From a phage: DNA of 42,659 nucleotides. The stretch is taken from the sequence record PZ386954.1, one strand, 5' to 3'. A program made the translations under genes and the position numbers. Below, one piece after another: positions 5,961 through 42,659 of this stretch; within the stretch, counting starts at the first letter, position 1; each line of letters begins with the position of its first letter. The notes under the pieces are model-generated. The model was not told the DNA's origin and did no database searches. It worked only from the letters and a program-made list of their open reading frames with translations.

Positions 5961-6133
5961 GGAGCATGACTATGTTCACTGCACTGTGTGTTATTGCGGC
6001 GGCGTGTTGGGTTATTGACCAGCGCCTGCCTAAGCGAGCCTGATATGTGGGACTTACTGGTAGCGTTATTCTGGTTCGTCTTTGCAGGCTTGTGGATTTA
6101 CTGGCTGACTCGTCCCAAATTATGGTGACTGCC

Positions 6134-10849: not shown

Positions 10850-11053
10850 ATGTTCCGAGTTATATTGTTGTTCCTGTTCCTCGTTATTATTTGGGGAGCT
10901 TTATGGATGGCGCTGGCAGTGTTCGCACTGATACCAGCCATCGGTGAGTCGGCTACTTCTTCGGTGGGTACGCTGCTCGGTATGCTGGTAGGCTGGGGCT
11001 TGATGCACGTAAGCCTGAGCGTAGGTCAGAGCCGGAGGTGGATTAGATGGTAA
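10850..11053 (+). CDS. small membrane protein (67 aa)
   Basis: highly hydrophobic, predicted TM helices; GAGGATGA upstream. Confidence 0.55.
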   Translation: MFRVILLFLFLVIIWGALWMALAVFALIPAIGESATSSVGTLLGMLVGWGLMHVSLSVGQSRRWIRW

Positions 11054-11487
11054 AGCCTAAGTACAAAATCGGTGACGAGATTGTAGGTCACAACGACACT
11101 GGCACCCGGTCAGGTAAGCTGGGTATCATCGCATGGGTTAACCCTGACCGCCGAGCATGGGAGCGCAGTGGTGAGACCCGCTACATCGTGAGCTGGATTG
11201 GTGAGCGGCTGAATGCACAGCCGGACATCAGCCACTACAAGTCTGATTGGCTGGAGGATAACACCAGTCTGGTCAGCCGCAAGCCAGAAGACCGGGGCCG
11301 CTACATGTGCTTGGTCGAAGGCAGCAATGCACCGCCGAAGGTTGAGCACATCACTGAACTGGATGCGCGGGAAGAAGCTGAGCGTTTGGCTGAGCGCAAC
11401 GGAGGTACTGTCCGTGTGCTGCAAGTTGTAGCCAGCGTGAAGATGAAGAAGAAGATTCAGTACATACCAGAGTGGGATAACGAATGA
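11047..11487 (+). CDS. hypothetical protein (146 aa)
   Basis: ORF with SD; no motif recognised. Confidence 0.6.
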   Translation: MVKPKYKIGDEIVGHNDTGTRSGKLGIIAWVNPDRRAWERSGETRYIVSWIGERLNAQPDISHYKSDWLEDNTSLVSRKPEDRGRYMCLVEGSNAPPKVEHITELDAREEAERLAERNGGTVRVLQVVASVKMKKKIQYIPEWDNE

Positions 11488-12194
11488 TGAAATCAGTGAG
11501 CAACGACGAGTGGCCGGAGCTGGCGAAGCGTCTGCCAGTAGGACAAAAGCGAAGGACGTTTCACAGTTGCTCGCGGTCATTCAGCAAGACCAACTTTGAG
11601 TATGGCCGTGCGCCGGATTACATCTGGTGCAAGTGCCATCGCTGTGGGTACAGCCGCAAGCATGACCTGACCCATGCAGTGTACGTACCGCCAGCCGAGG
11701 TGCAGGTGAAGGTGCCGACTGATGTTGTGCCTATCACTGAGGTGATTGCCAAGCAGCCCCGCCTTCTCCTGCCTGTGCTGGAGCGCGAGAACCTGATGCC
11801 GCACCTGTCTATCCTGACTGCAAGCCCAACGTATGGCAGGCTGTATCTGCCGGACGACACGGGCAGCTACTGTGGTCTGGATTACACCGGGCGGCAGTTC
11901 ATACCATGGCGCTCACCGCACAAGCATAGCTTGGCGATGAAGGTACACCCGCGAGGTGAGGCTGAGACGAATTGCCTGTGGGTATACGGTGAGGTGGACG
12001 AGTATCTCCAGCAGGTACGTGACGGGGGCAACTGTGCTTTCGTGCCGAACGTGGATGACACGACATTGCAGGCACTGGTAAGTGTGACGCTGGCCTATGG
12101 CTACAACCTCGTGGTCATCTGCCACCACCCAAGTGCTCAACGTATCCGCAGGGAACTGCGTGTGGTAGGGCGAGTGCAGATAGTAGGAGAGTGA
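11484..12194 (+). CDS. zinc-finger DNA replication protein, possibly DNA primase
   Basis: H-x-C...C-x-C-x2-C cluster (HSCSRS...CKCHRCGY) near the N-terminus; position immediately upstream of the helicase; no clear TOPRIM motif. Confidence 0.4.
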   Translation: MMKSVSNDEWPELAKRLPVGQKRRTFHSCSRSFSKTNFEYGRAPDYIWCKCHRCGYSRKHDLTHAVYVPPAEVQVKVPTDVVPITEVIAKQPRLLLPVLERENLMPHLSILTASPTYGRLYLPDDTGSYCGLDYTGRQFIPWRSPHKHSLAMKVHPRGEAETNCLWVYGEVDEYLQQVRDGGNCAFVPNVDDTTLQALVSVTLAYGYNLVVICHHPSAQRIRRELRVVGRVQIVGE

Positions 12195-12195
12195 T

Positions 12196-12624
12196 GTGCT
12201 TGAGTGTATTGACCACGGCCAGAAGGGTAATGCTAATGGCTACGGATATACCAGCCGCTATGTAGATGGCAAGCGGGTAGTGGTTGGGCTGCACCGCGCA
12301 GCTTACTGCGATGCGCATGGCCTGCCTTACTCTGCAATCAAGGGCAAGGTGGTCATGCACCGTTGTGATAACCCACGCTGTATCAACCCTGACCATCTGG
12401 TGTTGGGTACACAGGGAGACAACATGCAGGACATGATGGGCAAACGCCGACACCACAAGGGTGAGGCAACACCGCACGCCAAGCTGACGAGTGAGCAGGT
12501 CGTGCTTATCCGTAAGCTGTACGCTGAGGGCGGCGTAACCCAACGTGAACTTGCGTTGGAGTTCGGTGTATCCCAAACGAATATCAGTGCCATCGTAAGG
12601 GGAGAAACTTTCAGTGTTGGATAA
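12196..12624 (+). CDS. HNH homing endonuclease with C-terminal helix-turn-helix
   Basis: GTG start; HRCDNPRCINPDHLVLGTQGDN HNH motif; C-terminal QRELALEFGVSQTNISAIVRGE; inserted between the zinc-finger gene and the helicase. Confidence 0.8.
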   Translation: MLECIDHGQKGNANGYGYTSRYVDGKRVVVGLHRAAYCDAHGLPYSAIKGKVVMHRCDNPRCINPDHLVLGTQGDNMQDMMGKRRHHKGEATPHAKLTSEQVVLIRKLYAEGGVTQRELALEFGVSQTNISAIVRGETFSVG

Positions 12625-13879
12625 ACTGTTGTTAACGGTGATGCGCGAGCGCGGGAAATACAACTCCCTGCGACACGCCATCCCGGAAGATACAATGAGC
12701 CAGACCACGGGCTATATGCTGCGTGCTTACGGCTCATACTTTGACGCGTTCCCGGACAGTGACTTCATTGACATTGAGACACTGGGTACGCATGTTCGTT
12801 TGAAGACAGGCAGCACGCCTGAACAGATGGCAGCCTTCGATTCGTTGTGCGCTCAGCTCAAAGAGTACAAGCCAACGAAGGAGCAGAAGGAGGGCATCCT
12901 TGACCAGCTCGTAGAGTTGGACACTGCTGGTCGTGCGAACCTGCTAATGCAACGGTACGATAATGGTGAAGAACTTGATATTATCTATGAGCTTGGCCGT
13001 CTGGCTGAGGGCGCACGCCGCAGTCGGGGTCAATCATCCGTTACCGATTACGTCGATGACGATGTTGTTGACATTATTAATCGGACTGATGATGACCAAG
13101 GCTTTAAGTTCGGTCTCATGTGCCTGCAAGATAGCGTACGCGTACTGCTTCCCGGCGACTCCGTTGCAATCGCTGCCCGACCTGACAGTGGGAAGACCAG
13201 CTTCATCGCGTTTAACCTTACGCGAATGGCGGCGACAGCAGCGAAGCTCTATCCGGGCAGACCAATCCTGTGGTTCAACAACGAAGGTCAGGGCATCAAC
13301 ATCATCCCGCGCATCTATCAGGCGGCGCTCAACTGTACGCTCCCGGAACTGAAAGAGCTGGGTGAGGACAGAGGCAAGCTGCACGCTGCGTATGCCAAAG
13401 CACTGGGTGCGCCAGCCAATGTGATTCGTGTTAAGGATATGCACGGCGCGACGCTGGCGAAAGCTGAGCAGGTTATCGAAGCGATGAACCCGTGCATCGT
13501 GGTGTGGGATATGCTTGCCAACTTCAAGCTGTCTGTGTCTGACCCGTCAAGCAACAAGGCGAGTCAGGTCGAGCAGCTATGGCAGGAGGTACGTGAGCTG
13601 GCAGTGCGCCACAACTTTGTGTCGCTGGCTACGGTTCAGGTATCTGCTGATGGTGCCGATGATATGTTCCCGGCACTGGATGCGCTCAAGGATTCCAAGA
13701 CTGGTATCCAAGGGGCGACTGATGTTATCGTGATGCTCGGCAGTGTGGATGACCCATCACTGGCGGCGCGGCGCGGTGTCAGTACGCCGAAGAACAAACG
13801 CCAGATTGCTGGGCGTCCAAGCAACGTGCGGTCGCAGGTACACTTCTTTGCTGACCGCTGCCAATACGAGGATATGTAA
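12614..13879 (+). CDS. replicative DNA helicase (DnaB/T7 gp4 helicase-like)
   Basis: Walker A IAARPDSGKTSF and Walker B-like CIVVWDML; start uncertain (GTG 12614 or ATG 12641). Confidence 0.7.
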   Translation: MLDKLLLTVMRERGKYNSLRHAIPEDTMSQTTGYMLRAYGSYFDAFPDSDFIDIETLGTHVRLKTGSTPEQMAAFDSLCAQLKEYKPTKEQKEGILDQLVELDTAGRANLLMQRYDNGEELDIIYELGRLAEGARRSRGQSSVTDYVDDDVVDIINRTDDDQGFKFGLMCLQDSVRVLLPGDSVAIAARPDSGKTSFIAFNLTRMAATAAKLYPGRPILWFNNEGQGINIIPRIYQAALNCTLPELKELGEDRGKLHAAYAKALGAPANVIRVKDMHGATLAKAEQVIEAMNPCIVVWDMLANFKLSVSDPSSNKASQVEQLWQEVRELAVRHNFVSLATVQVSADGADDMFPALDALKDSKTGIQGATDVIVMLGSVDDPSLAARRGVSTPKNKRQIAGRPSNVRSQVHFFADRCQYEDM

Positions 13880-15236: not shown

Positions 15237-17702
15237 ATGGCAATAAGAGCACAGGTAATCGACGTTGAGACTGAGAACCATGAGTGGTATGGGGAGCTGG
15301 CATCGCCGCGCTGCCCGGATAACTATGTGGTTATGCAGGGCCAGCGTGACTGTGTGCTGACCAAGGATGGCTGGGTATTCTACGAGCGCGAGGAGTATCG
15401 GTACAGTTCTCGTGAGGACTGGTTGCAGAACAAGAGTCTGCACCTGCATCCTGACACGAACATTCTGGTAGCTCACAACGCGCCGTATGAATTGAGCTGG
15501 TGGTTCGAGCATTACGGTGACGAGTTCATTGCCTTCCTCAAACGAGGTGGCCGTGTATTCTGTACCGCGTATGCTGAGTACCTGCTGACGCATCAGCAAT
15601 CCCAGTACCCATCCTTGAACGAGACAGCACCGAAGTATGGTGGTACTCACAAGGTGGATGCAGTCAAGGCAATGTGGGAGTCAGGCTACCTGACCAGCCA
15701 GATTGACCCTGAGCTGCTGAGCGAGTATCTGTCCGGGCCGTCCGGGGATATTGAGAACACGACCAAGCTGTTCGTTGGTCAGTGGGCTGAACTGACAAAG
15801 CAGGGCATGTTGCCGATGGCACTGACCCGCTTCGAAGGTATGCTCATGTGGGCGTACATGATGCACGCTGGTCTGCATGTTGACCGCGAGGTAGCCGAGC
15901 GCAACCGTCGCGAGTTACAGGATGCAATCAGTGGGCTGACTGAAACGCTGCTGAGTTACCTGCCAGCCGACATGCCGAAGGAAGCGCGTGAGCAATTCAA
16001 GTTCACGTCAGCTTATCACATGAGCGCCTTCGTGTTCGGTGGTGTGATGAAGTACAAGGCGCGAGTCGAGCGCCGGGATGCCGAGGGCAATCTCATTTAC
16101 GTGAAGGTGGATGCACCACTGTTCAAGCGAGGCAAGGACAAGTGGCTCAAGCATACCAGCGAGTGTGAGTGGGATGACGAGACTGGGTTGTGGTATGACC
16201 CGGTTGAGAAGGTACACCAGACTATCTACACCAGCGGCAAGCACAAGGGCGAGCCGAAGTTTGAGAAGCTGGCTACCGACGAGGTGGATACCAAGTGGGG
16301 TGAGGTGCTGTTCCGTATGCCGGGGCTTCTGCGTGTGCAGGATAAACGAGCGAAGGAGATTGCAGACAACCTCGAATGGGAAGACCCGAAGAAGCCGGGC
16401 GAGTATCTCCGGCGCACAGGTGATTGGGTAGGTAAGCGTAGGCTGGCCGATGGTTCCCCGGTATTCAGTACGGCGGGTGAGGTGCTGGACATTCTGGCAG
16501 CTCGTAAGATTCCCGGCGTGGTGGAGATTGCTGACCGGGCCAAGGCACAGAAAGACCTCGGCACCTACTACCTCAGCGAGACGTTCGATGAAGAAGGTAA
16601 CGTGACTGGCCAGTCGGGGATGATGCAGTTCATCCAGCCGGACAGTATCGTACACCACACCATCAACATGACCGCGACCGAGACGACGCGCTTATCTTCG
16701 GCGCGACCGAACAGCCAGAACTTGCCACGTAAAGGTACGAGTAAGGTTAAGCAGATGTTCACCTCCCGCTTTGGTGAAGGTGGCCGCATCGTTGAAGCTG
16801 ACTACTCGGCACTGGAAGTGGTGGGGCTGGCCGGGTTCAGTAAGGATAAGAACCTGATTCGTGCATTGCTCGATGGTATCGATATGCACTGTATGCGATT
16901 GTCAGCTCAGCTCAACGAGCCGTACGAGGACGTGCTTAAGAAGTGCAAGGATGAATCCCATCCTGACCATGCACGGTACAGTCAGATGCGTACTGACATT
17001 AAGCCGAAGGCGTTCTCATACCAGTACGGTGCAACAGCGCGAGGTATTGCTTACTCGACTGGTTGCTCAGAGGAAGAAGCGCAGGCGTTCATCGACAACG
17101 AGAAGGGTCTGTTCCCGGAAGTTGAAGAATGGTTCGACGCGGTTATCTTCCCTGCCGTAGAGAAAAGTGGACAGAGCAATGTATTCAAGGAGCAGGACGA
17201 GAACGGGCGGTGGCAGGTGTATCGCCGTGGTCACTTCCGTTCGCCGGGTGGAACTTGTTATTCATTCCGTCAGTACGAGAAATGGAACAAGGCGGCGCGT
17301 GCTCACCTGATGGAATACAAACCAACTCAGATGCGTAACTATCCTATTCAGGGTGAGACCGCATTTTGGGTACAGGGAATCGGTGGCCTGCTGTTCCGCT
17401 GGCTGCTATCGAACGACTTCTTTGGTGGGCGTGTGGTTCCCATCAACCAAGTGCATGACGCATTCTATTTCGACATTGCACCTGACTGCCCTCACGAGTT
17501 CTTCGTTGGACTCAAGGCAATCATGGAGAGCATCCCGGAATACTATAACCACGTATGGCCAGAGTATAACCTGACAGTGCCGTTCCCGGCAGAGGTGGAA
17601 GCAGGGCCAAGCATGTACGAGAAGCACCACGTAGAGACGACAGCCGATGAAGTGCTGGAGTTTAAGAGACAATTCCTGTTGAGTAAGGGTATCGCATTAT
17701 GA
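15237..17702 (+). CDS. DNA polymerase, family A (T7 gp5-like)
   Basis: 821 aa; DYSALEVVGLA (motif A), KPKAFSYQYGATARGI (motif B), INQVHDAFYFD (motif C), RPNSQNLPRK. Confidence 0.9.
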   Translation: MAIRAQVIDVETENHEWYGELASPRCPDNYVVMQGQRDCVLTKDGWVFYEREEYRYSSREDWLQNKSLHLHPDTNILVAHNAPYELSWWFEHYGDEFIAFLKRGGRVFCTAYAEYLLTHQQSQYPSLNETAPKYGGTHKVDAVKAMWESGYLTSQIDPELLSEYLSGPSGDIENTTKLFVGQWAELTKQGMLPMALTRFEGMLMWAYMMHAGLHVDREVAERNRRELQDAISGLTETLLSYLPADMPKEAREQFKFTSAYHMSAFVFGGVMKYKARVERRDAEGNLIYVKVDAPLFKRGKDKWLKHTSECEWDDETGLWYDPVEKVHQTIYTSGKHKGEPKFEKLATDEVDTKWGEVLFRMPGLLRVQDKRAKEIADNLEWEDPKKPGEYLRRTGDWVGKRRLADGSPVFSTAGEVLDILAARKIPGVVEIADRAKAQKDLGTYYLSETFDEEGNVTGQSGMMQFIQPDSIVHHTINMTATETTRLSSARPNSQNLPRKGTSKVKQMFTSRFGEGGRIVEADYSALEVVGLAGFSKDKNLIRALLDGIDMHCMRLSAQLNEPYEDVLKKCKDESHPDHARYSQMRTDIKPKAFSYQYGATARGIAYSTGCSEEEAQAFIDNEKGLFPEVEEWFDAVIFPAVEKSGQSNVFKEQDENGRWQVYRRGHFRSPGGTCYSFRQYEKWNKAARAHLMEYKPTQMRNYPIQGETAFWVQGIGGLLFRWLLSNDFFGGRVVPINQVHDAFYFDIAPDCPHEFFVGLKAIMESIPEYYNHVWPEYNLTVPFPAEVEAGPSMYEKHHVETTADEVLEFKRQFLLSKGIAL

Positions 17703-18592
17703 CCGCATCTGTATTGAACCGCATGAACTCCATCGTCGAACAGTATGTTGACGAGGAAGAACTTGACTTTAACGAAGCCACGTCTGGTGGTGGTAAGCTG
17801 CTGCCGGAAGGTAAGGCACTGGCACGTCTGGTTGGCTACATTGAAGTGGGGCCGAGCGTAACCAAGCAGGCACCGGACAAGCCGCCTGTCAATAAGTTCT
17901 TCCTCCAGTTCGCGCTGTGGGGCAAGGCCAAGAACGGCGAGACTTACCACGAAGTTGTCAATGGTAAGATGGTGCCGGGCAAGGTGCGCACGCAGTTCAT
18001 CGCTGTGAAGAAAGACCTCAACAGCAAGTCCGGCGCATACAAACTGTTCAAGCGTATGAACCCGGACAAGACTGCGAAGCACTTCGCGCAGCTTCTGAAC
18101 CACACCTTCATCGTTCCGATTATCCACAACGAATCGGGCGAGGGTGAGAACAAGAAGGTGTACGCCAACATCGACCTTGAGAACATCATGCTCGCGGTTG
18201 ACCCGGTGACTGACCAGCCGTACCCGGTGCCGGAGGTTGAGGACGAGACTCTGTTCAAGCTGTTCCTGTGGAACCGTCCGACCAAGGAAGACTGGGAATC
18301 CCTGTACATCGAAGGCAAGAACGACGATGGTAAATCCAAGAACTGGATTCAGGATAAGCTGCTGGAATCTCCAGAGTTCCCCGGCTCTCCGCTTGACCTG
18401 CTGCTGAATGGTGCAGGTGCTGGCTCAGCGATTGCCGAGCTGCCGGAGCTGGGCGACGTGGGTGCGCCGGAGGAAGTGGCCGAGGTCAAGGAAGAAGTGA
18501 AGGAGCTGGAGACGGCTGGCGCTGCTGACAAGACCAGCACCAAAGAGCCGGACGTAACTGGTGACGCTGACTTCGGGCTGCCGAGTCTGTAA
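17699..18592 (+). CDS. hypothetical protein (297 aa) with acidic C-terminal region
   Basis: ATG overlapping DNAP stop (ATGA); C-terminal EVKEEVKELE...DADFGLPSL. Confidence 0.6.
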   Translation: MTASVLNRMNSIVEQYVDEEELDFNEATSGGGKLLPEGKALARLVGYIEVGPSVTKQAPDKPPVNKFFLQFALWGKAKNGETYHEVVNGKMVPGKVRTQFIAVKKDLNSKSGAYKLFKRMNPDKTAKHFAQLLNHTFIVPIIHNESGEGENKKVYANIDLENIMLAVDPVTDQPYPVPEVEDETLFKLFLWNRPTKEDWESLYIEGKNDDGKSKNWIQDKLLESPEFPGSPLDLLLNGAGAGSAIAELPELGDVGAPEEVAEVKEEVKELETAGAADKTSTKEPDVTGDADFGLPSL

Positions 18593-19017
18593 TGGATTGC
18601 ATAGACCACGGTAAACGCGGCAACCACTTTGGCTACGCCACCACCACGAGGACGGTAGGTGGCAAGCGCCGGGCTGGTATCAAGCTGCATCGTCTGGTCT
18701 ACTGTGAAGCGCATGGCCTGTCTCTCCTTGACATTGAGGGGCAGGTCGTGCGCCATACCTGCGACAACCCGCGCTGCATTAACCCCGACCACATGGTACT
18801 CGGTACTCACCAAGACAATGTGGCCGACCGGGTAGCGCGTGGCCGTGGGGCAGTAGGCGTGAGGAATGGCAGAGCCGTACTGTGTCCCGCCGTAGTGGAC
18901 GCAATCCGTAGCCGCTATGCGAATGGCGGCATCAAGCAATCTGAGCTGGCTGAGATTTATGGCGTGAGTCAAACGCAGGTCAGCCGCATAGTGAGGGGAG
19001 AGTCATGGGAAAGTTAG
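18592..19017 (+). CDS. HNH homing endonuclease, paralog of 12196-12624
   Basis: MDCIDHG...HTCDNPRCINPDHMVLGTHQDN; C-terminal ELAEIYGVSQTQVSRIVRGE. Confidence 0.8.
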   Translation: MDCIDHGKRGNHFGYATTTRTVGGKRRAGIKLHRLVYCEAHGLSLLDIEGQVVRHTCDNPRCINPDHMVLGTHQDNVADRVARGRGAVGVRNGRAVLCPAVVDAIRSRYANGGIKQSELAEIYGVSQTQVSRIVRGESWES

Positions 19018-19979
19018 ACAGGCTACTCGCCAGAGCGGAGGTGGAACCTGACCAGTTTGATGGTTACGTGTCTGGTCGTATTCTGCTGTGTGATGCTGAC
19101 TCGACAGTCTACGTTGCGGCAGCAACCACGAAGAACATCGAGACAGCGAAGACGCGGTTCTGTTCCGGGGTGCTGACTGCTAAGTTCCTCGCCAATGCTC
19201 AGTCAGTCCGTATCGAGTTGACCGCTGCGGAGTGTACGAAAGCTGGACGGTACAAGCTGCGTGGGGCCAAGCTGTATCAGGGCAACCGAGACAAAGACCG
19301 CAAGCCCGGTCTGGTCGAGCCGTTGCGTAAGGCGATTGGCCGGAATATGTTCAACGTTCCTGATGGCGAGGATTGGTACGTCCACCTGAACTTCGAGTTC
19401 GAGGCAGACGACACCTTAATCATGGATGCGTGGACGATTGGCATTAACGATGCAGTAATCTACAGCGCGGATAAAGACCTGCGCTGCTGGCCGGGCAGGT
19501 TCCTCGACCCATACGATAACAAGGTACTGGAGCCATGCAAAGGTGTCGGCACATTGTGGTGGCATGAAACCAAGAGTGACAAGTCGCTCATTGGCCATGG
19601 CCCGATATTCTTTTGGGCGCAGATGCTGATGGGTGACACGGCAGACAACATCGCTGGTGTCAAGAAACTTGGCAAGCAGGCAGCTTACAATATGCTGAAC
19701 GCGTATCAGGAAACTGATGACGAGTCGGCAGTGGCTGAGCTGGTGCTGAGGGAATACATGGTGCGTGACCAGAACCCATGGCCAGAGGCTGTTGCCTTGT
19801 GGCTGTACCGCACGCCGACCTACTCATTCGCAGCTCACTTGAATACGCTGACCTTGAGCAAGGAGCTGCGTATCTGGTTGCATAAGAAATTGAATGAGGA
19901 ATGGTATGCGGAAAGTGACTGGCGCGACCTTGTTGCAGATGCGGAAGAATGCGATGGGTTATCCTTGCCCACTCTGTAA
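19005..19979 (+). CDS. 5'-3' exonuclease (T7 gene 6-like, FEN/H3TH)
   Basis: H3TH motif MGDTADNIAGVKKLGKQAA (GD..DNI.GV...G). Confidence 0.8.
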   Translation: MGKLDRLLARAEVEPDQFDGYVSGRILLCDADSTVYVAAATTKNIETAKTRFCSGVLTAKFLANAQSVRIELTAAECTKAGRYKLRGAKLYQGNRDKDRKPGLVEPLRKAIGRNMFNVPDGEDWYVHLNFEFEADDTLIMDAWTIGINDAVIYSADKDLRCWPGRFLDPYDNKVLEPCKGVGTLWWHETKSDKSLIGHGPIFFWAQMLMGDTADNIAGVKKLGKQAAYNMLNAYQETDDESAVAELVLREYMVRDQNPWPEAVALWLYRTPTYSFAAHLNTLTLSKELRIWLHKKLNEEWYAESDWRDLVADAEECDGLSLPTL

Positions 19980-20286
19980 TGAGCCGATGGTAGACCTCAA
20001 GCTCATGGTTGTTGACCACGACCATGTGAGTGGGGAGATTCGCGGAGTCATCTGTCGCTGGTGTAATGCTCAGCTCGGTAAGGTAGAGAACTCTGCCAAC
20101 CGAGCGAAGCGCCAGCGTACTGTGGATGATTGGCTGGACAGTGCCATCGAGTGGCGGCGTAAGCAACACACTGGTCTGATGTACCCAACGCACAAGACCG
20201 AGGCAGAGAAGAAGGCGGCAGTAGCCGACAGACGTAAGAAGGCAGCAGCCGCGAAAGCGCGAGCCTTATTGACTAAGGGGAAATGA
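19894..20286 (+). CDS. endonuclease VII-family junction-resolving enzyme; true start may be 19906 or 19954
   Basis: CPLCNEP...VVDHDHVSGEIRGVICRWCNAQLG matches the C..C...DHDH..G..RG..C..CN..LG signature. Confidence 0.7.
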   Translation: MRNGMRKVTGATLLQMRKNAMGYPCPLCNEPMVDLKLMVVDHDHVSGEIRGVICRWCNAQLGKVENSANRAKRQRTVDDWLDSAIEWRRKQHTGLMYPTHKTEAEKKAAVADRRKKAAAAKARALLTKGK

Positions 20287-23086: not shown

Positions 23087-25521
23087 TGATGGACTTACTT
23101 GCAGAGCAGATTCGACTTGAAGAAGAAGCACGAGCCAGACACCGCGAGGGCTGGCTGGATAATATCAAAGAGGCGATGGCCAGTGGCCGGGCCGGGTCGG
23201 TGCCGTTGCTCCAGCGTATGATGGTAGAGGCGTATCCTCTTGTCGAAGCTGCGATGCAAGAAACCCTGAGCGAAACGACCCGTGGATATGGTGCGCAGTA
23301 CCGGACGTACATGCGTGAGATTGGCACCAAAGCGTGTGCCTCTCTCGCACTGAGCATGGCGGTGTCCGGTGCTGCGTCGGAGCAGGCGGTACTGAGTCTG
23401 CTCAAGAGCATGGGCAAGGCACTGATGGCTGAGGTGGTGTACCTCCGGGCGAAGCAGACCGGGCCACAGCAGGCGGCGTACATGGAGCGCGTTAAGCAGG
23501 ACGTGAAGAAGTCTCGCTCGAAGTCAGCGAACCACGTTTACAATAAAGCGCGTGCGTCGGCGGCGAACGTTGGGGTGGAGATTGATGTGCTACCGCAGCG
23601 TGCGCTGATTACCATTGGCAAGTTGATGATGAAGTGCGTCGAGCCAACTGGTCTGGTGTCTACGATTCGCGTCGGCGGCAACCAGCGCCAGCGCGGTACG
23701 GCACACTTCGCACTGCATGAAGATGTGCTGGCTACGATGAATGACTGGCTGGACATGCCGCGTGCCGATGGCATGTGCTGCCCACCGCTGATTATCCCAC
23801 CGAAGCAGATTGCCCCGAATGGTCGCAGTGGTATGTGGCATTCCGATGGGCAGGCAGCGATGTACCGGGTAATGAGTCGCATGAACCACAAAGGGTATCG
23901 TGCATTGAACGTTGACCCGACCCCCGTTATAGAGCCGTGTATGATGCTCAGCAGCGTTCCGTACCGAGTTAACCCAATGGTACTGGAGTTCCTGCGAACG
24001 AACCGTACAGGCGTTATGGGGCTGCCTGTGCCACCTCGTGAGCCTACACTTCCGTTTACCATCCCCGCTGGTGTGAGCTTTGCGCAGTACATCAGCAAGT
24101 TCCCACCAGAGATGCAGCAGCAGATGGATGCCGAAGCTCATGAGTACAAGGTGAAGACTCGCTTGTATTACAATGAGTTGCGTAAGTTCACGTCGCAGAT
24201 GCTGGCGTTGAATGGTGCAGTCAAAGAGGCAGACAGGTATGCGCAGTACGATAGGATTTATCTCCCGACTTACGCCGATACGCGGGGCCGAATTTATTAT
24301 TCTTCGACCCTTAACCCTCAGTCTATCGACGCGGTGCGAGCGCTGCTTGAGCTTGCGGAACCAGTGGCTCTCGGAAGCGAGGGGCTATTCTGGCTCAAGG
24401 TTCATGTTGCGAATTGCTTCGGCTACGACGCAACAGACTTCGACGACCGGGCGGCGTGGACGGACAAAACACTCCCCCGACTACGTGAGGCGTGCCGTCT
24501 TCCAGAGGCATTTGATTCGTTCTGGTCTGAGGCCGATAGCCCTATCTCAGCGTGGGCTGCATCTGTTGAACTCATTCGAGCTATCGACAGCGGAAGTCCT
24601 GAGACTTATCCCTGCCGAGTGGTTACGCAGTGGGATGCTACATGTTCAGGTCTCCAACACCTCAGCGCAATGTTACGCGATGAAGTTGGGGGTGCTGCTG
24701 TCAATCTTATCAATAGCGTGGGGCGAAAGGCAGACATATATCTCAAGACGGCAGCAGCGGCGATGCAGGCTCTTGAAGATAGTGAAGCGCAGTCACCGAC
24801 GCAGATGGGTACGTGGCTTGTTTCAATCGGCATTGTCCGGGCTATGGCCAAGAAGCCAGTGATGACCTACGTGTACGGGGCAACCCGTCACGGTATGGTG
24901 GACTACTACTGCCTGTACCTGCGAGAGAACCGGGTCAAGCTGCCGGACGGCAAGAGCCTACTGGAGTGTGCGCAGTTCATCGCAGAGTTCATGTGGAATG
25001 CAATCCCGCGTGTCGTGCCGAAAGCGGCAGAGCTGATGGCGTGGTTGCAGGCTATCGCGGTGGAGGCGGCGGCTAACGGCGAGTACGTGGAAATCATTGC
25101 GCCGTCAGGGTTGCGGGTGGTTAACCTGTACCAAGCCAGCAAGGAGACGATGCTCAACAACATCAACCTCATGGGTATCCACAGCATTAAGCTGCGCGAG
25201 TATCTGGACAAGCCGGACGGCAGGAAGTGCGCTGCTGCGATTGCTCCTAATTTCGTACACGCTATGGATGCCAGCCACATGATGAAGGTGTTGTGGGAGA
25301 TGTGGAATAACGGGGTGTTCATGGTGTCCATCCATGACTCGTTCGGTGTTGCTGCTGCTCATGCCGGGTTACTTCACAAGGTCATTCGTGAAAAGTTCGT
25401 GCAGATGTATGAGCAACATGACCCAATTCAACAACTTGCTGTGCGATACAATGCTGTTGCACCTGAACGGGGCAATCTGGACATCCAGCTTGTGAAACAA
25501 TCAAGCAAGTTTTTCTGCTGA
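23086..25521 (+). CDS. single-subunit DNA-dependent RNA polymerase (T7 gp1-like)
   Basis: 811 aa; catalytic VSIHDSFGV motif and overall T7-class RNAP layout; located directly before the structural genes as in phiKMV-like phages. Confidence 0.9.
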   Translation: MMDLLAEQIRLEEEARARHREGWLDNIKEAMASGRAGSVPLLQRMMVEAYPLVEAAMQETLSETTRGYGAQYRTYMREIGTKACASLALSMAVSGAASEQAVLSLLKSMGKALMAEVVYLRAKQTGPQQAAYMERVKQDVKKSRSKSANHVYNKARASAANVGVEIDVLPQRALITIGKLMMKCVEPTGLVSTIRVGGNQRQRGTAHFALHEDVLATMNDWLDMPRADGMCCPPLIIPPKQIAPNGRSGMWHSDGQAAMYRVMSRMNHKGYRALNVDPTPVIEPCMMLSSVPYRVNPMVLEFLRTNRTGVMGLPVPPREPTLPFTIPAGVSFAQYISKFPPEMQQQMDAEAHEYKVKTRLYYNELRKFTSQMLALNGAVKEADRYAQYDRIYLPTYADTRGRIYYSSTLNPQSIDAVRALLELAEPVALGSEGLFWLKVHVANCFGYDATDFDDRAAWTDKTLPRLREACRLPEAFDSFWSEADSPISAWAASVELIRAIDSGSPETYPCRVVTQWDATCSGLQHLSAMLRDEVGGAAVNLINSVGRKADIYLKTAAAAMQALEDSEAQSPTQMGTWLVSIGIVRAMAKKPVMTYVYGATRHGMVDYYCLYLRENRVKLPDGKSLLECAQFIAEFMWNAIPRVVPKAAELMAWLQAIAVEAAANGEYVEIIAPSGLRVVNLYQASKETMLNNINLMGIHSIKLREYLDKPDGRKCAAAIAPNFVHAMDASHMMKVLWEMWNNGVFMVSIHDSFGVAAAHAGLLHKVIREKFVQMYEQHDPIQQLAVRYNAVAPERGNLDIQLVKQSSKFFC

Positions 25522-39800: not shown

Positions 39801-39939
39801 TGGCGGTGTGTTGACTGGGGATGCTGACCAAGCCATCTCCGGTGCTCGCAAGGCGGCGGGTAACGTCATCCAAGCAATCCCACTCATCTCCATTGTGCCG
39901 GGCGTCCGAGCACTCAACGAAGCAGTTAAGGGTGAATAA
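36829..39939 (+). CDS. internal virion protein C (T7 gp16-like)
   Basis: 1036 aa; overlapping stop/start with neighbours; synteny. Confidence 0.75.
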   Translation: MIITQESLDKFMAPKQGANAPSLVIPAPVKTADLSTPLQDATRQGAVEQFDKMQELEATPMATALSASVKNWDTTQLFDAAFNKPTFQADPDFKPNEALQNVQFPVGADDRTFLFKSKSMDEFNWRTQQLQEMRERTQLAHTAPVMNAVLQFADPLYLATDLLSMGAGTALKLGRLGTAAVGAASTATLMNTIGSEARPVSQNEIIFAAALHGAATTAFYRPAAAPARRLDELSPEEFAAEMQRRNGIDPNNPPQFDPNNAMSPLAMSLGVGPRGATVVDEVPESIRAAAQRGLDLARRGEQTNPKRPFLEWSLFKSFSQHSEESSALAGRLLDDPLNPNMTSAAAIQRETQARFGVLLNQYEDTLRHALTTDGWSNIRRFRDPVGYRRAQQEFEAAVRLELDKRMIDNNFRGANPSVAAAADRLGEYSRAVGRELERKGMVEPGFVEKNPYYYPRRMNVTKVEQAEQLLGKKPFMKQMTTAVQRGIGTDRPTANVIAHAMVERARRKGYGIDNSGTIINKEGRDELLEIIENSKGLDEAAKARASALLRESGSDAGRPSMLKSRINIDMMHQLGPNLQVRDLFDDSITSMMDSYNRRITGRLALHEAGLGTDAERAAAREALAKSIKDGTARRQALGQYDNIMAYYQGAPVGEEMPQFMRQLSALTQATGLAASGLWQLVEYGTMMQRFGAVNTFRAMMRTIPEARALFKQMRVSTKEGRQLALDAEEALTAAVASDIRMRPIMQHYEDMFSADKSPWVMRLEHARDATMFINMQKYIHFHQTRTNAALVMQTLRKAAEGDAKAIAAMKTYGANEQLLNDIRKQVGQHGTKPDAWDEGVFNRSRIVMMNAMDDAIVRARVGELPAFAEFSTLGKFLFTFRRFVAATHNKTLVGTWNREGARGMATLMAYQYPLAMMATAANNVISGKAFSDPETMAPNKLAGQALNYLGAIGFASEFTGVLTGQQRSFGAPGLLFLDRAYGVAGAATNAAGGVLTGDADQAISGARKAAGNVIQAIPLISIVPGVRALNEAVKGE

Positions 39940-42320
39940 TGGCGAACAGCTATAATACTTACGTGGCGAACGGTTCACAGACCGCATTCCTCGTCACGTT
40001 CGAGCAGCGCGTGTTCACTGAGATTCAGGTGTACCTCAACTCCGAACTCCAGACGAGCGGATACACCTACAACTCTGTGACCAAACAGATTGTCTTTGAC
40101 ACCGCCCCGCCAATCGGGGTGATTGTCCGACTCCAACGCTACACCTCCGATATTCTGCTTAACAAGTTCGGTCAGGACGCTGCCTTCACGGGCAGCAACC
40201 TCGACGAGAACTTCGAGCAGATTCTGTTTAAGGCTGAGGAAACTCAGGAAGCATGGCTCGCGCCGCTTGACCGTGCCGTCCGTGTTCCGAACTCCGAAGT
40301 CTCCATCAACGCTTTACCGAACGTCGCTGGTCGCCGCAACAAAGCACTGGGCTTTGATAGTAATGGCCAGCCGTTCATGATTCCTCTGGTTGATATTCCT
40401 GACTCCGCGCTGGCTATTGCACTCGCAATGAATGACGGCGGTAAATGGATTGGTACACTGGGCGGCGGTACGTTCCTCGACCGTCAGGATACTGTGTGCC
40501 TGTCAGAGTTCACCAACAACACTGGTTACGCGTCAGTTAGCGCTGCTGTGCAGGCTTGCTTTGACTATGCCGCAGCCAACAATAAAGTAGTGGATGCTCG
40601 CGGCTGGGTAGGCACGCTAAACGCCAACGTCACGATGACAAATATTGAGGTTGTCGGCGGTACGTGGAAAGGCACATCTGACGTGTTTATCGTTAACTCG
40701 CTGTTCCGCAACTTCGAGATTAATAACCTGCGCCTGCGTCCATATGGCGGCGATGTTCGTATCCGCTATGGCTTATTTGATGGTAAGCCCACGCTGAGTA
40801 AAGTGGCGAGCATTATGCTCCAAGCTATCCCAGCCGCTGGCACCATTGAGGTCACAGATTGCGAGTTCCGAAATGGTCTATATGGTATCTTGCAGCAAGG
40901 CACTGGCGAGGTGATGACGCGTGGCCTGTTTCGTAACCTGTCGTTCTATGACATGGGTGGTGATGGGATTGAGCTGAACGTTGTGCAGAAACACTACGAT
41001 GATGGCTGTCTAATTGAGAACATCGTTCTTGAGAACATAGACAGTACAGGTCAGGCACCTATCAATAACTCCAACTGGGGTATCGGTATTGGTGTGGCTG
41101 GTAGTTCTCCATATGGTTTGGATACTCCAGACAGCTATTATGCCAAGAACATTACCATTCGCAACGTCAAGGCACGACGCTGCCGTCAGGTTGTTCACTT
41201 TGAGCAGGTTCGTGATTCGCTTATCGAGAACATCGACGGCGACCCCGACCAGAACGTGTCTAACGGCTCCGGCCTGACTATGGCCACTGTGCTGTGCTAC
41301 GGTGCGCGTCGCGTTACCATCAACGGTGTACGCGGTGAACCAGTGGTCACAGAGGGTACTGACCCGCATAGCATCCGCATTGTGATGCTGGAGTGGGGTA
41401 CTAACGCCGGGATTGGCGCACGCGGGCCATGTCAACACATGACTGTGCGCAACGTGTCATCCCGTAATGGGCGCTTCTATGCTGGCGTAGGCTGTCAGGC
41501 TGTAGGGCTAGACAATACAGCAACGTTCGAGAACATCGACTGCTATAACTTCCGAGTGTTCGGCGTAGCGCGTGAACTTAATCTAGCCAACATCACCTGC
41601 ACAGTGTTTGACTGTATCGGCGATGATTCTGCTGGCGGTACTTCGTCCAACGGGTATCTGGCTGTCGGTCGCACAACGCTCAATATGACCAATGTTAACG
41701 CACTGTCTGAGGACTTGGTAGCCAATCAGGGCTGGAGCCGCTGTGCATACTCGTATGTGTCCAGCGTGGCATCCAACGTGTACGCACGTCCGTATCCCCG
41801 CCAAGGGATTGATGGTGGCATTGGTGTACCTGTGCGGCCCAGCAACCGTGTGTACGTGATGCCGGATGCTGCTGATGTGAATATCACAGACTGGGATGGT
41901 ACTCAGTTCCCTGCCGGACGAGAGTTCGTAGAGGGTGACTTGATTATGCGTACTGATGGTAAGTTCTTTACGGTAACTCGCAGTGGTGCCTATATTCCAG
42001 CTATTGCCGAATATCGGGTCAAAGCTGCGGCAGCAGGTCAGACGTACCTCGCCAGCAATTACCCTATGGATGGTAACAAAGGGTCAATGGTTTGGATTTA
42101 CAGATACATGCTGACGCCCGGCACCCATATCAATATTCCGGGAGCTGGTGCAGGCGGCGGAGTATTACATACCACCATTGCTCGCGGCCCGTACCGTACG
42201 GACGTGAACAACCCTACCAGTGAGATTCGCGTCGGCATTAGTGACCCTATCGTCACAGCTATCCCGGCAGGTACTCAGCTATCCGCCACGTACCCAATCT
42301 CGTTCCGTACACCAACATAA
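39939..42320 (+). CDS. tail fibre / tailspike with T7 gp17-like N-terminal anchor and parallel beta-helix-like C-terminal region (possible polysaccharide depolymerase)
   Basis: 793 aa; N-terminal MANSYNTYVANGSQTAFLVTF...; C-terminal recurring N-I-x-I-x-N-V rungs (ENIVLENID, NITIRNVKA, MTVRNVSS, FENIDCYNF). Confidence 0.75.
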   Translation: MANSYNTYVANGSQTAFLVTFEQRVFTEIQVYLNSELQTSGYTYNSVTKQIVFDTAPPIGVIVRLQRYTSDILLNKFGQDAAFTGSNLDENFEQILFKAEETQEAWLAPLDRAVRVPNSEVSINALPNVAGRRNKALGFDSNGQPFMIPLVDIPDSALAIALAMNDGGKWIGTLGGGTFLDRQDTVCLSEFTNNTGYASVSAAVQACFDYAAANNKVVDARGWVGTLNANVTMTNIEVVGGTWKGTSDVFIVNSLFRNFEINNLRLRPYGGDVRIRYGLFDGKPTLSKVASIMLQAIPAAGTIEVTDCEFRNGLYGILQQGTGEVMTRGLFRNLSFYDMGGDGIELNVVQKHYDDGCLIENIVLENIDSTGQAPINNSNWGIGIGVAGSSPYGLDTPDSYYAKNITIRNVKARRCRQVVHFEQVRDSLIENIDGDPDQNVSNGSGLTMATVLCYGARRVTINGVRGEPVVTEGTDPHSIRIVMLEWGTNAGIGARGPCQHMTVRNVSSRNGRFYAGVGCQAVGLDNTATFENIDCYNFRVFGVARELNLANITCTVFDCIGDDSAGGTSSNGYLAVGRTTLNMTNVNALSEDLVANQGWSRCAYSYVSSVASNVYARPYPRQGIDGGIGVPVRPSNRVYVMPDAADVNITDWDGTQFPAGREFVEGDLIMRTDGKFFTVTRSGAYIPAIAEYRVKAAAAGQTYLASNYPMDGNKGSMVWIYRYMLTPGTHINIPGAGAGGGVLHTTIARGPYRTDVNNPTSEIRVGISDPIVTAIPAGTQLSATYPISFRTPT

Positions 42321-42330
42321 GGAGAACCAC

Positions 42331-42636
42331 ATGGCATCCGTGAATAAGCAGCTCGACGGGCTGCACCGGATGCTGGTGGAGTATCTGTCCGACCGCTTGG
42401 CCGACGCTCGTAGGAAAGATGAACATGGTAATATCATCGAACCTATGGCGGCGGCTGAGCTGTCCGTACTTCGCCAGTTCCTGAAAGACAACGGTATTCA
42501 GGCTGATAAAGACCACGCAGATGACCTGCTGGCGCTGCAAGAGCAACTGAATAACGAAAAGACCGAGGCAGGTCGTAAGGATATTATGACCGCTGCCATT
42601 AACTCAATCGCAGAAGATAGCGGGATGATGCACTAA
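42331..42636 (+). CDS. terminase small subunit (DNA maturase A)
   Basis: 101 aa; GGAGAA SD; immediately upstream of the terminase large subunit across the window junction. Confidence 0.7.
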   Translation: MASVNKQLDGLHRMLVEYLSDRLADARRKDEHGNIIEPMAAAELSVLRQFLKDNGIQADKDHADDLLALQEQLNNEKTEAGRKDIMTAAINSIAEDSGMMH

Positions 42637-42659
42637 TGGATTTACAACGCCGCATGGTG

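Follow-up and report, generated by a model that had tools for sequence, protein, structure and literature searches.

Two short open reading frames (ORFs) with similarity to HNH endonucleases lie in the replication module of the genome analyzed here, and the question arises whether they are mobile elements and whether the first has split a replication gene. The window, i.e., the whole stretch of 42,659 nt (record PZ386954.1), is the complete, circularly permuted genome of a Bonnellvirus coliphage, a T7-like podophage of the Autographivirales. An earlier note on this DNA had described the two ORFs as paralogous free-standing homing endonucleases and had suggested that the first may mark a split of what is a single primase-helicase gene in T7. 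No dedicated study of Bonnellvirus HNH genes was found in literature searches. The analysis makes it quite probable that the ORFs represent two homing-endonuclease genes (HEGs) of the free-standing type, from the HNH_3 (His-Me finger) family, whose products would cleave DNA and promote homing. The two genes, which also carry a helix-turn-helix (HTH) domain, are the following:

12196..12624, + strand: HNH-1, free-standing HNH_3 plus HTH endonuclease gene, 142 aa, GTG start (ORF list, Pfam, PHROG)
18592..19017, + strand: HNH-2, free-standing HNH_3 plus HTH endonuclease gene, 141 aa, ATG start (ORF list, Pfam, PHROG)

Domains and active site of the HNH proteins

BLASTP alignment of the two proteins showed 73 identities in 139 positions (53%) with one gap (E 4e-49), which confirms the homology claimed for these ORFs. 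The shared motifs and the C-terminal HTH that the note had pointed out are also present, namely, the CDNPRCINPDH core and the N-termini M(L)ECIDHG in HNH-1 and MDCIDHG in HNH-2. Both proteins match the Pfam family HNH_3 (PF13392, clan His-Me finger; 33.4 bits for HNH-1 and 35.3 bits for HNH-2, cut-off 24.8) and, at the C-terminus, HTH_3 (residues 105–138 with 26.0 bits and residues 110–138 with 25.5 bits, respectively, cut-off 23). The family PF05551 ("zinc-binding loop region of homing endonuclease") was matched by HNH-1 with 30.4 bits, above the cut-off of 27, and by HNH-2 with 26.4 bits, just under it. In the PHROG database, both proteins match phrog_59 "HNH endonuclease" (E 2.5e-32 and 1.7e-29). 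A tblastn search of the whole window found exactly these two genes and no third copy of the family.

In an alignment of 55 family members, 13 columns are invariant (C4, Y16, H33, H55, C57, D58, N59, C62, P65, H67, G71, N76, and D79), and all 13 residues are intact in both HNH-1 and HNH-2. A PDB search with the family profile finds the I-PpoI endonuclease (E 7.5e-4); the alignment covers the segment vrHtCDNprCinPeHLvlGthqdN without gaps and places H55 and N76 on H98 and N119 of I-PpoI. Since the deposited H98Q and H98A mutant chains of I-PpoI score lower against the family profile, H55 corresponds to the general base of that enzyme. By analogy with I-PpoI, we take H55 to be the general base and N76 to be a metal ligand, while C57, C62, and H67, probably together with C4, presumably form the first zinc site. 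The second zinc site of the I-PpoI type is absent: no cysteine follows C62 in HNH-1, and the only one that does so in HNH-2, C98, is not conserved.

The predicted structures of the HNH proteins contain the beta-beta-alpha-metal fold, and their top Foldseek matches are I-PpoI. A sequence-only PDB search with HNH-1 returned HTH proteins only; I-PpoI and I-HmuI were reached via the family profile and structure comparison, not by a single-sequence search. The proteins consist of an N-terminal nuclease domain and a C-terminal HTH, which presumably supplies sequence recognition. Their architecture is most like that of I-HmuI, whereas their active-site motif is most like that of I-PpoI.

Occupied and empty sites

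The nearest deposited relative of the window is the Escherichia phage altidsur, accession MN850568 (95.6% identity across 40.6 kb aligned), and the identity is about 98–99% through most of the replication module. Only four segments of at least 20 nt do not align between the two genomes, and two of them (12204–12613 and 18593–19048) are the HNH sites. Both HNH genes are absent from altidsur, where base-precise empty sites are found. At the first of these sites (site 1), the following features were recognized:

11484..12194, + strand: DNA primase, upstream neighbour of HNH-1 (phrog_8634, E 1.4e-72)
12185..12203, + strand: translation start taken over by HNH-1 (sequence, alignment, BLAST)
12204..12613, + strand: segment without altidsur counterpart (alignment, BLAST)
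12614..12625, + strand: helicase start rebuilt as GTGTTGGATAAA; the HNH-1 stop TAA (12622–12624) lies within it
12614..13879, + strand: DnaB-like replicative helicase, downstream neighbour and probable target gene of HNH-1 (Pfam DnaB_C, phrog_19, PDB 2vye)

In altidsur, site 1 reads ...AGGAGAG TGA T GTG CTT GAC AAG CTG..., i.e., the primase stop, one nucleotide, and the helicase start. In the window, the Shine-Dalgarno (SD) sequence AGGAG (12185–12189) and the primase stop TGA (12192–12194) are followed by GTGCTTGA at 12196–12203; in relatives with an empty site, these 8 nt begin the helicase gene, whereas here they begin HNH-1. BLAST aligned positions 18569–18576 of altidsur to both 12196–12203 and 12614–12621; the insertion thus measures 418 bp (the offset from 12196 to 12614) and lies between an imperfect 8-bp repeat, GTGCTTGA and GTGTTGGA. 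The helicase of the window starts with GTG TTG GAT AAA CTG..., with the TAA that ends HNH-1 contained in GAT AAA. Compared with the empty-site allele GTGCTTGACAAG, the start GTGTTGGATAAA has four differences, all of them synonymous, which leave the helicase N-terminus MLDKLLL... unchanged. This recoded start is found in both genomes that carry HNH-1 but in none of three with an empty site. An SD-like sequence, AAGGGGAG, is located at 12597–12604, where HNH-1 encodes V-R-G-E.

The position of HNH-1 is precisely that between primase and helicase, and fractured genes associated with HEGs are known from other systems (PMC2677866); on such grounds, the HNH-1 insertion could be thought to have split a formerly single, T7 gp4-like primase-helicase gene. 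The suggestion is not supported, because every examined relative without an HNH gene at this site already has primase and helicase as separate neighbours, and a recent split is thereby contradicted. In altidsur, in the phage mellemsur, and in the metagenomic contig L004, all with site 1 empty, the primase TGA is followed by one nucleotide and the helicase GTG, and the genes are separate, with an SD of their own. Separate, adjacent primase and helicase genes with no HNH gene are also found in GAP227 (Cronosvirus), Ptacy1537 (Ahphunavirus), and LIMEzero (Waewaevirus). In addition, the helicase has approximately 160 residues ahead of DnaB_C and matches its sole solved sequence relative, the bacterial DnaB-type helicase 2vye, from residue 94; no homology with T7 gp4 was recovered in the PDB search at E <= 0.001. 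A split by HNH-1 is therefore extremely improbable: the gene evidently entered a pre-existing primase/helicase boundary and did not create it. The primase itself has no Pfam match and no solved sequence relative; besides phrog_8634, only a weak match of its N-terminus to phrog_47 identifies it, and its assignment is thus an annotation transfer.

At the second site (site 2), the arrangement is as follows:

17699..18592, + strand: conserved hypothetical gene (phrog_862), upstream neighbour of HNH-2 (PHROG)
18593..19048, + strand: site-2 replacement block, 456 bp in place of 81 bp of altidsur (24548–24628)
19005..19048, + strand: recoded exonuclease 5' end, MGKLDRLLARAEVEP versus MSRLKRLLHNAEELD in empty alleles
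19005..19979, + strand: 5'-3' exonuclease, downstream neighbour and probable target gene of HNH-2 (phrog_107, E 2.9e-57; Pfam 5_3_exonuc below cut-off)
19049..19500, + strand: exonuclease tract divergent from altidsur (90% identity to altidsur, 95.8% to mellemsur-type phages)

The ATG of HNH-2 overlaps the stop of the upstream gene (TAATG), and the first 13 nt of the exonuclease gene overlap the 3' end of HNH-2. The 81 bp of altidsur that are replaced comprise a 37-nt spacer with a GGCAC...GTGCC hairpin and the first ~15 exonuclease codons. Every genome with HNH-2 has the recoded exonuclease start, and four genomes without HNH-2 do not have it. An SD-like sequence, GAGGGGAGAG, is located at 18993–19002 within the HNH-2 codons. 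In both cassettes, the codons of the conserved C-terminal V-R-G-E read ...AGGGGAG..., just 5' of the downstream start codon; from its position we infer that this purine run may serve as a working ribosome-binding site. Pfam and PHROG analyses bear out the neighbours named in the earlier note at both junctions (primase and helicase around HNH-1, a hypothetical gene and the exonuclease around HNH-2). The HNH genes have their own ORFs, and the flanking primase, helicase, phrog_862 gene, and exonuclease are all complete.

The spacer hairpin is kept in empty site-2 alleles, as GGCAC-AGGGAC-GTGCC in altidsur (L001:7678-7714) and as GGCCAC-AGGGAC-GTGGCC, with a stem 1 bp longer, in the metagenomic contig L003 (L003:14758-14793). 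It is lost in HNH-2-carrying genomes, the deletion in the window being at 18592/18593. The hairpin may act as a terminator or promoter element, or as an RNase III site.

A third site-2 allele is present in mellemsur (L006:7716-7913) and in the phage LF82-23 (L002:7974-8171), namely, a 65-aa ORF with no function assigned. The ORF is 97% identical between these two phages, overlaps the exonuclease start, and is unrelated to the HNH family; its locus corresponds to ~18593–19005 of the window.

The short recoded flanks co-segregate with each HEG. The ~450-bp tract at 19049–19500 is a possible co-conversion tract, although it is not distinctive against the genome-wide mosaicism. Its divergence was rejected as proof of co-conversion, since 18% of all 200-bp bins genome-wide are equally divergent and HNH-2-less genomes share the tract. 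Further downstream, an endonuclease VII ORF (Pfam PF02945, E 1.3e-13; 19894–20286) shares 86 nt with the 3' end of the exonuclease gene. As called, it encodes 130 aa versus the 110-aa CDS annotated in altidsur, and the real start is probably internal to this ORF.

Distribution, transfer and origin

All four combinations of presence and absence exist: neither gene in altidsur, HNH-1 alone in L003 (site 2 empty), HNH-2 alone in L004 (site 1 empty), and both in the window; the two genes thus assort independently. The metagenomic contigs used here (L003, L004, L005, etc.) are automated assemblies. HNH-2 is also found in the short contig L005, and HNH-1 is absent from mellemsur as well. A large protein database contains a 99%-identical HNH-1 (P0001) and a 98%-identical HNH-2 (P0049). 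Among the deposited relatives covering most of the replication module, 19 of 20 are HNH-free at both sites, so the HNH genes are dispensable.

One sign of mobility concerns HNH-1. Between the window and L003, 428 of its 429 nt are identical (99.8%), whereas the flanking primase and helicase genes show 10–20 differences per 100 nt, and the block of high identity ends within ~20–30 bp of the gene on both sides. Since a single nucleotide of 429 differs while the flanks differ by 10–20%, recent horizontal transfer specific to this element is indicated. Taken with the precise empty sites and the four combinations, this comparison of flanks shows that the genes described in the earlier note as free-standing HNH endonucleases behave as mobile insertions.

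Presence and absence by themselves give no direction, and the imperfect repeat GTGCTTGA/GTGTTGGA around HNH-1 could mediate a deletion. The HNH genes might therefore be ancestral and immobile and the empty sites precise deletions, which would mean loss instead of gain. This is very unlikely: the empty state is found not only in 19 of the 20 deposited relatives but also in other genera (GAP227, LIMEzero, Ptacy1537), and HNH-1 is far more similar than its flanks, which points to transfer. Moreover, the empty alleles of site 2 have the conserved hairpin spacer and a different exonuclease N-terminus, which a deletion of HNH-2 could not regenerate.

In HNH-2, the divergence tracks that of the backbone, and an excess of gene over flank similarity is seen for HNH-1 only. 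The window and L004 differ in HNH-2 by 28 nt (6.6%), similar to the backbone divergence, with 25 synonymous and 3 nonsynonymous codon changes; L004 and L005 differ by 21 synonymous and no nonsynonymous codon changes. The amino acid identity of HNH-2 between the window and L004/L005 is 98%. This pattern indicates that HNH-2 is under purifying selection as a functional protein.

That HNH-2 is as diverged as the backbone, that mosaic patches are common in these genomes, and that sharing a site does not make family members more alike than occupying different ones, leaving no clear coupling between site and specificity, would all agree with another explanation. The genes might be decaying or domesticated relics, immobile or co-opted (e.g., as HTH DNA-binding regulators or as general nucleases aiding replication or recombination), and the pattern might come from ordinary phage recombination. 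Such an explanation is unlikely in view of the intact catalytic and zinc residues of both proteins, the strong purifying selection on HNH-2, and the dispensability of the genes in 19 of the 20 deposited relatives. The near-identity of HNH-1 across backbones that have diverged by 10–20%, with block edges ~20–30 bp from the gene, would be hard to obtain without element-specific transfer.

As for the origin of the two genes, the word "paralogous" was appropriate insofar as both belong to the same family, but they are probably not the products of a duplication within this genome. In an unbootstrapped neighbor-joining tree, which gives no support values, HNH-1 groups with the site-1 gene of LF82-23, and HNH-1 and HNH-2 are not sisters. 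A recent duplication within the genome was rejected: nucleotide similarity between the genes is confined to 123 nt at 71%, and each gene occurs alone elsewhere. Because of the tree, the low nucleotide similarity, and the separate occurrence in other genomes, independent acquisition of HNH-1 and HNH-2 is more likely than duplication.

LF82-23 is the only deposited Bonnellvirus with an HNH gene at site 1, where it carries a different family member (48% identical); no deposited Bonnellvirus relative has an HNH gene at site 2. A more distant phage (L012) carries a 55%-identical family member (P0051) at site 2 with the same 13-nt overlap. Two further members are encoded in L004. The first (L004:1382-1828; 148 aa, 56% identical to HNH-2) is located upstream of the primase gene, where the window has an unrelated 146-aa ORF (11047–11487); the second (L004:5154-5519; 121 aa) is N-terminally shorter and lies between the nucleotidyltransferase and DNA polymerase genes. 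At least four positions of the Bonnellvirus replication module are thus used by the HNH family.

Pairwise identities among these HNH genes are 39–56%, and sharing a site brings no greater similarity (48.5% and 54.7% for same-site pairs, 52.5% and 56.1% for different-site pairs). The treatment of HNH-1 and HNH-2 as site-specific lineages was rejected for this reason. Other close relatives of the HNH genes sit between terminase subunits or in early regions, and no deposited phage protein exceeds ~52% full-length identity to HNH-1 or HNH-2. Judging from these alignments, HNH-1 and HNH-2 are members of one diversified family.

Outside the HNH sites, two other segments of the window have no nucleotide similarity to altidsur, 6029–6130 and 41204–42251. 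The latter, of ~1 kb, falls within the C-terminal part of the tailspike gene (39939–42320), and its dissimilarity is consistent with a swap of the receptor-binding domain. The window is permuted relative to altidsur and appears to start 24 nt inside the large terminase gene (1–1737, 42636–42659). By alignment with altidsur, this gene spans the ends of the window (~42636 to 1737), with the true start at ~42636.

Proposed homing and comparison with known systems

If both genes are HEGs, their spread could be explained as follows. In a mixed infection with a HEG-less Bonnellvirus, the enzyme would nick or cut the empty allele at the insertion site or close to it; the predicted target of HNH-1 is the primase-stop/helicase-start junction, and that of HNH-2 is the spacer and the exonuclease 5' end. 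Repair by recombination, with the HEG-carrying genome as template, would then copy the cassette into the cut allele. The carrier genome would be protected, its site being physically split and the adjacent sequence recoded. The cost of the cassette may be limited in three ways: it is promoter-less, with its translation coupled to that of the gene before it (TGA-T-GTG for HNH-1, TAATG for HNH-2), it re-creates the start of the downstream essential gene, and it supplies an SD-like sequence from its own V-R-G-E codons. In this scheme, the cleavage specificity, the target positions, and present-day active homing are inferred.

The core replisome block, from the helicase to the DNA polymerase (12.6–18.6 kb), has a HEG on either side, and the two could conceivably act jointly as the ends of a "HEG island", which we consider very unlikely. 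If so, the 6-kb block would be preferentially inherited in mixed infections (marker exclusion), and the recoded helicase and exonuclease starts would be the immunity determinant. Movement of such an island together with the block was rejected: the block between the genes is 98.7% identical to that of the HEG-less altidsur and shows no sign of co-movement.

Several known endonucleases can be compared with HNH-1 and HNH-2. I-HmuI of the Bacillus phage SPO1 (PDB 1U3E) is a nicking enzyme whose gene lies in a group I intron within the gene for DNA polymerase. It has the same architecture, with an N-terminal HNH and a C-terminal HTH, but HNH-1 and HNH-2 are free-standing, and the sequence identity is only ~21%. 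A group I intron context was not found, as the HNH genes lie between complete, separate ORFs with none interrupted; no RNA-family search was made. With I-PpoI (Physarum, His-Cys box; PDB 1A73/1CZ0), the likeness consists of the gapless HxCxNxxCxNPxHL(x6)DN match, the PF05551 hit, and the top Foldseek hits. HNH-1 and HNH-2 differ from it in lacking the second zinc site, in the HTH DNA-binding module, and in being free-standing phage genes, whereas I-PpoI is encoded by a eukaryotic rDNA-intron gene. Among Autographivirales, HNH_3 proteins of the same family (42–52% identity) and the same size are encoded, e.g., by Klebsiella KP34-like phages (Drulisvirus), LF82-23 ("endonuclease"), and Acinetobacter Friunavirus, often beside helicase, DNA polymerase, or exonuclease genes. 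HK97 gp74-like HNH proteins are packaging factors encoded beside the terminase genes or the cos site, whereas HNH-1 (12.2 kb) and HNH-2 (18.6 kb) belong to the replication module, away from the terminase.

PMC2988022 and PMC2790892 describe the mob genes of T4 (mobA–mobE) as free-standing HNH genes, of which MobE has been characterised, and mobA is also predicted there to start at GUG. The likeness to HNH-1 and HNH-2 includes a stand-alone HNH gene with a C-terminal DNA-binding region, a position between conserved genes of nucleotide or DNA metabolism, a promoter-less cassette on the host polycistronic transcript, and sporadic presence among relatives. In contrast to the mob genes, the genes described here belong to the HNH_3 subfamily with an I-PpoI-like zinc motif, encode much smaller proteins of predicted activity in a T7-like podophage genome, and extend into the downstream gene, whose start they recode. 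In ICP1-like phages, IPA-HNH HEGs have an N-terminal HNH and are defined by a C-terminal AP2, according to Barth et al. 2023 (PMC10448857). They, too, have an N-terminal HNH, are enriched next to replisome genes, and often occur several per genome; HNH-1 and HNH-2 differ in having HTH_3 and no AP2 match in the Pfam scan.

Free-standing HNH HEGs beside replication genes are common in phages, and their presence here is unsurprising; what the relatives of the window provide is unusually clean comparative evidence for the mobility of a known kind of phage selfish element. The annotation of this phage group is corrected in that its separate primase and helicase genes do not come from HEG insertion. 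Furthermore, this phage group, which has been isolated on E. coli K-12, provides a natural set of alleles (both genes, HNH-1, HNH-2, or neither) with base-precise junctions. Homing, immunity by synonymous recoding, and co-conversion are therefore directly testable in a small T7-like genome. The cassettes also illustrate the compactness that such elements may reach: they take over the start of a downstream essential gene and rebuild it.
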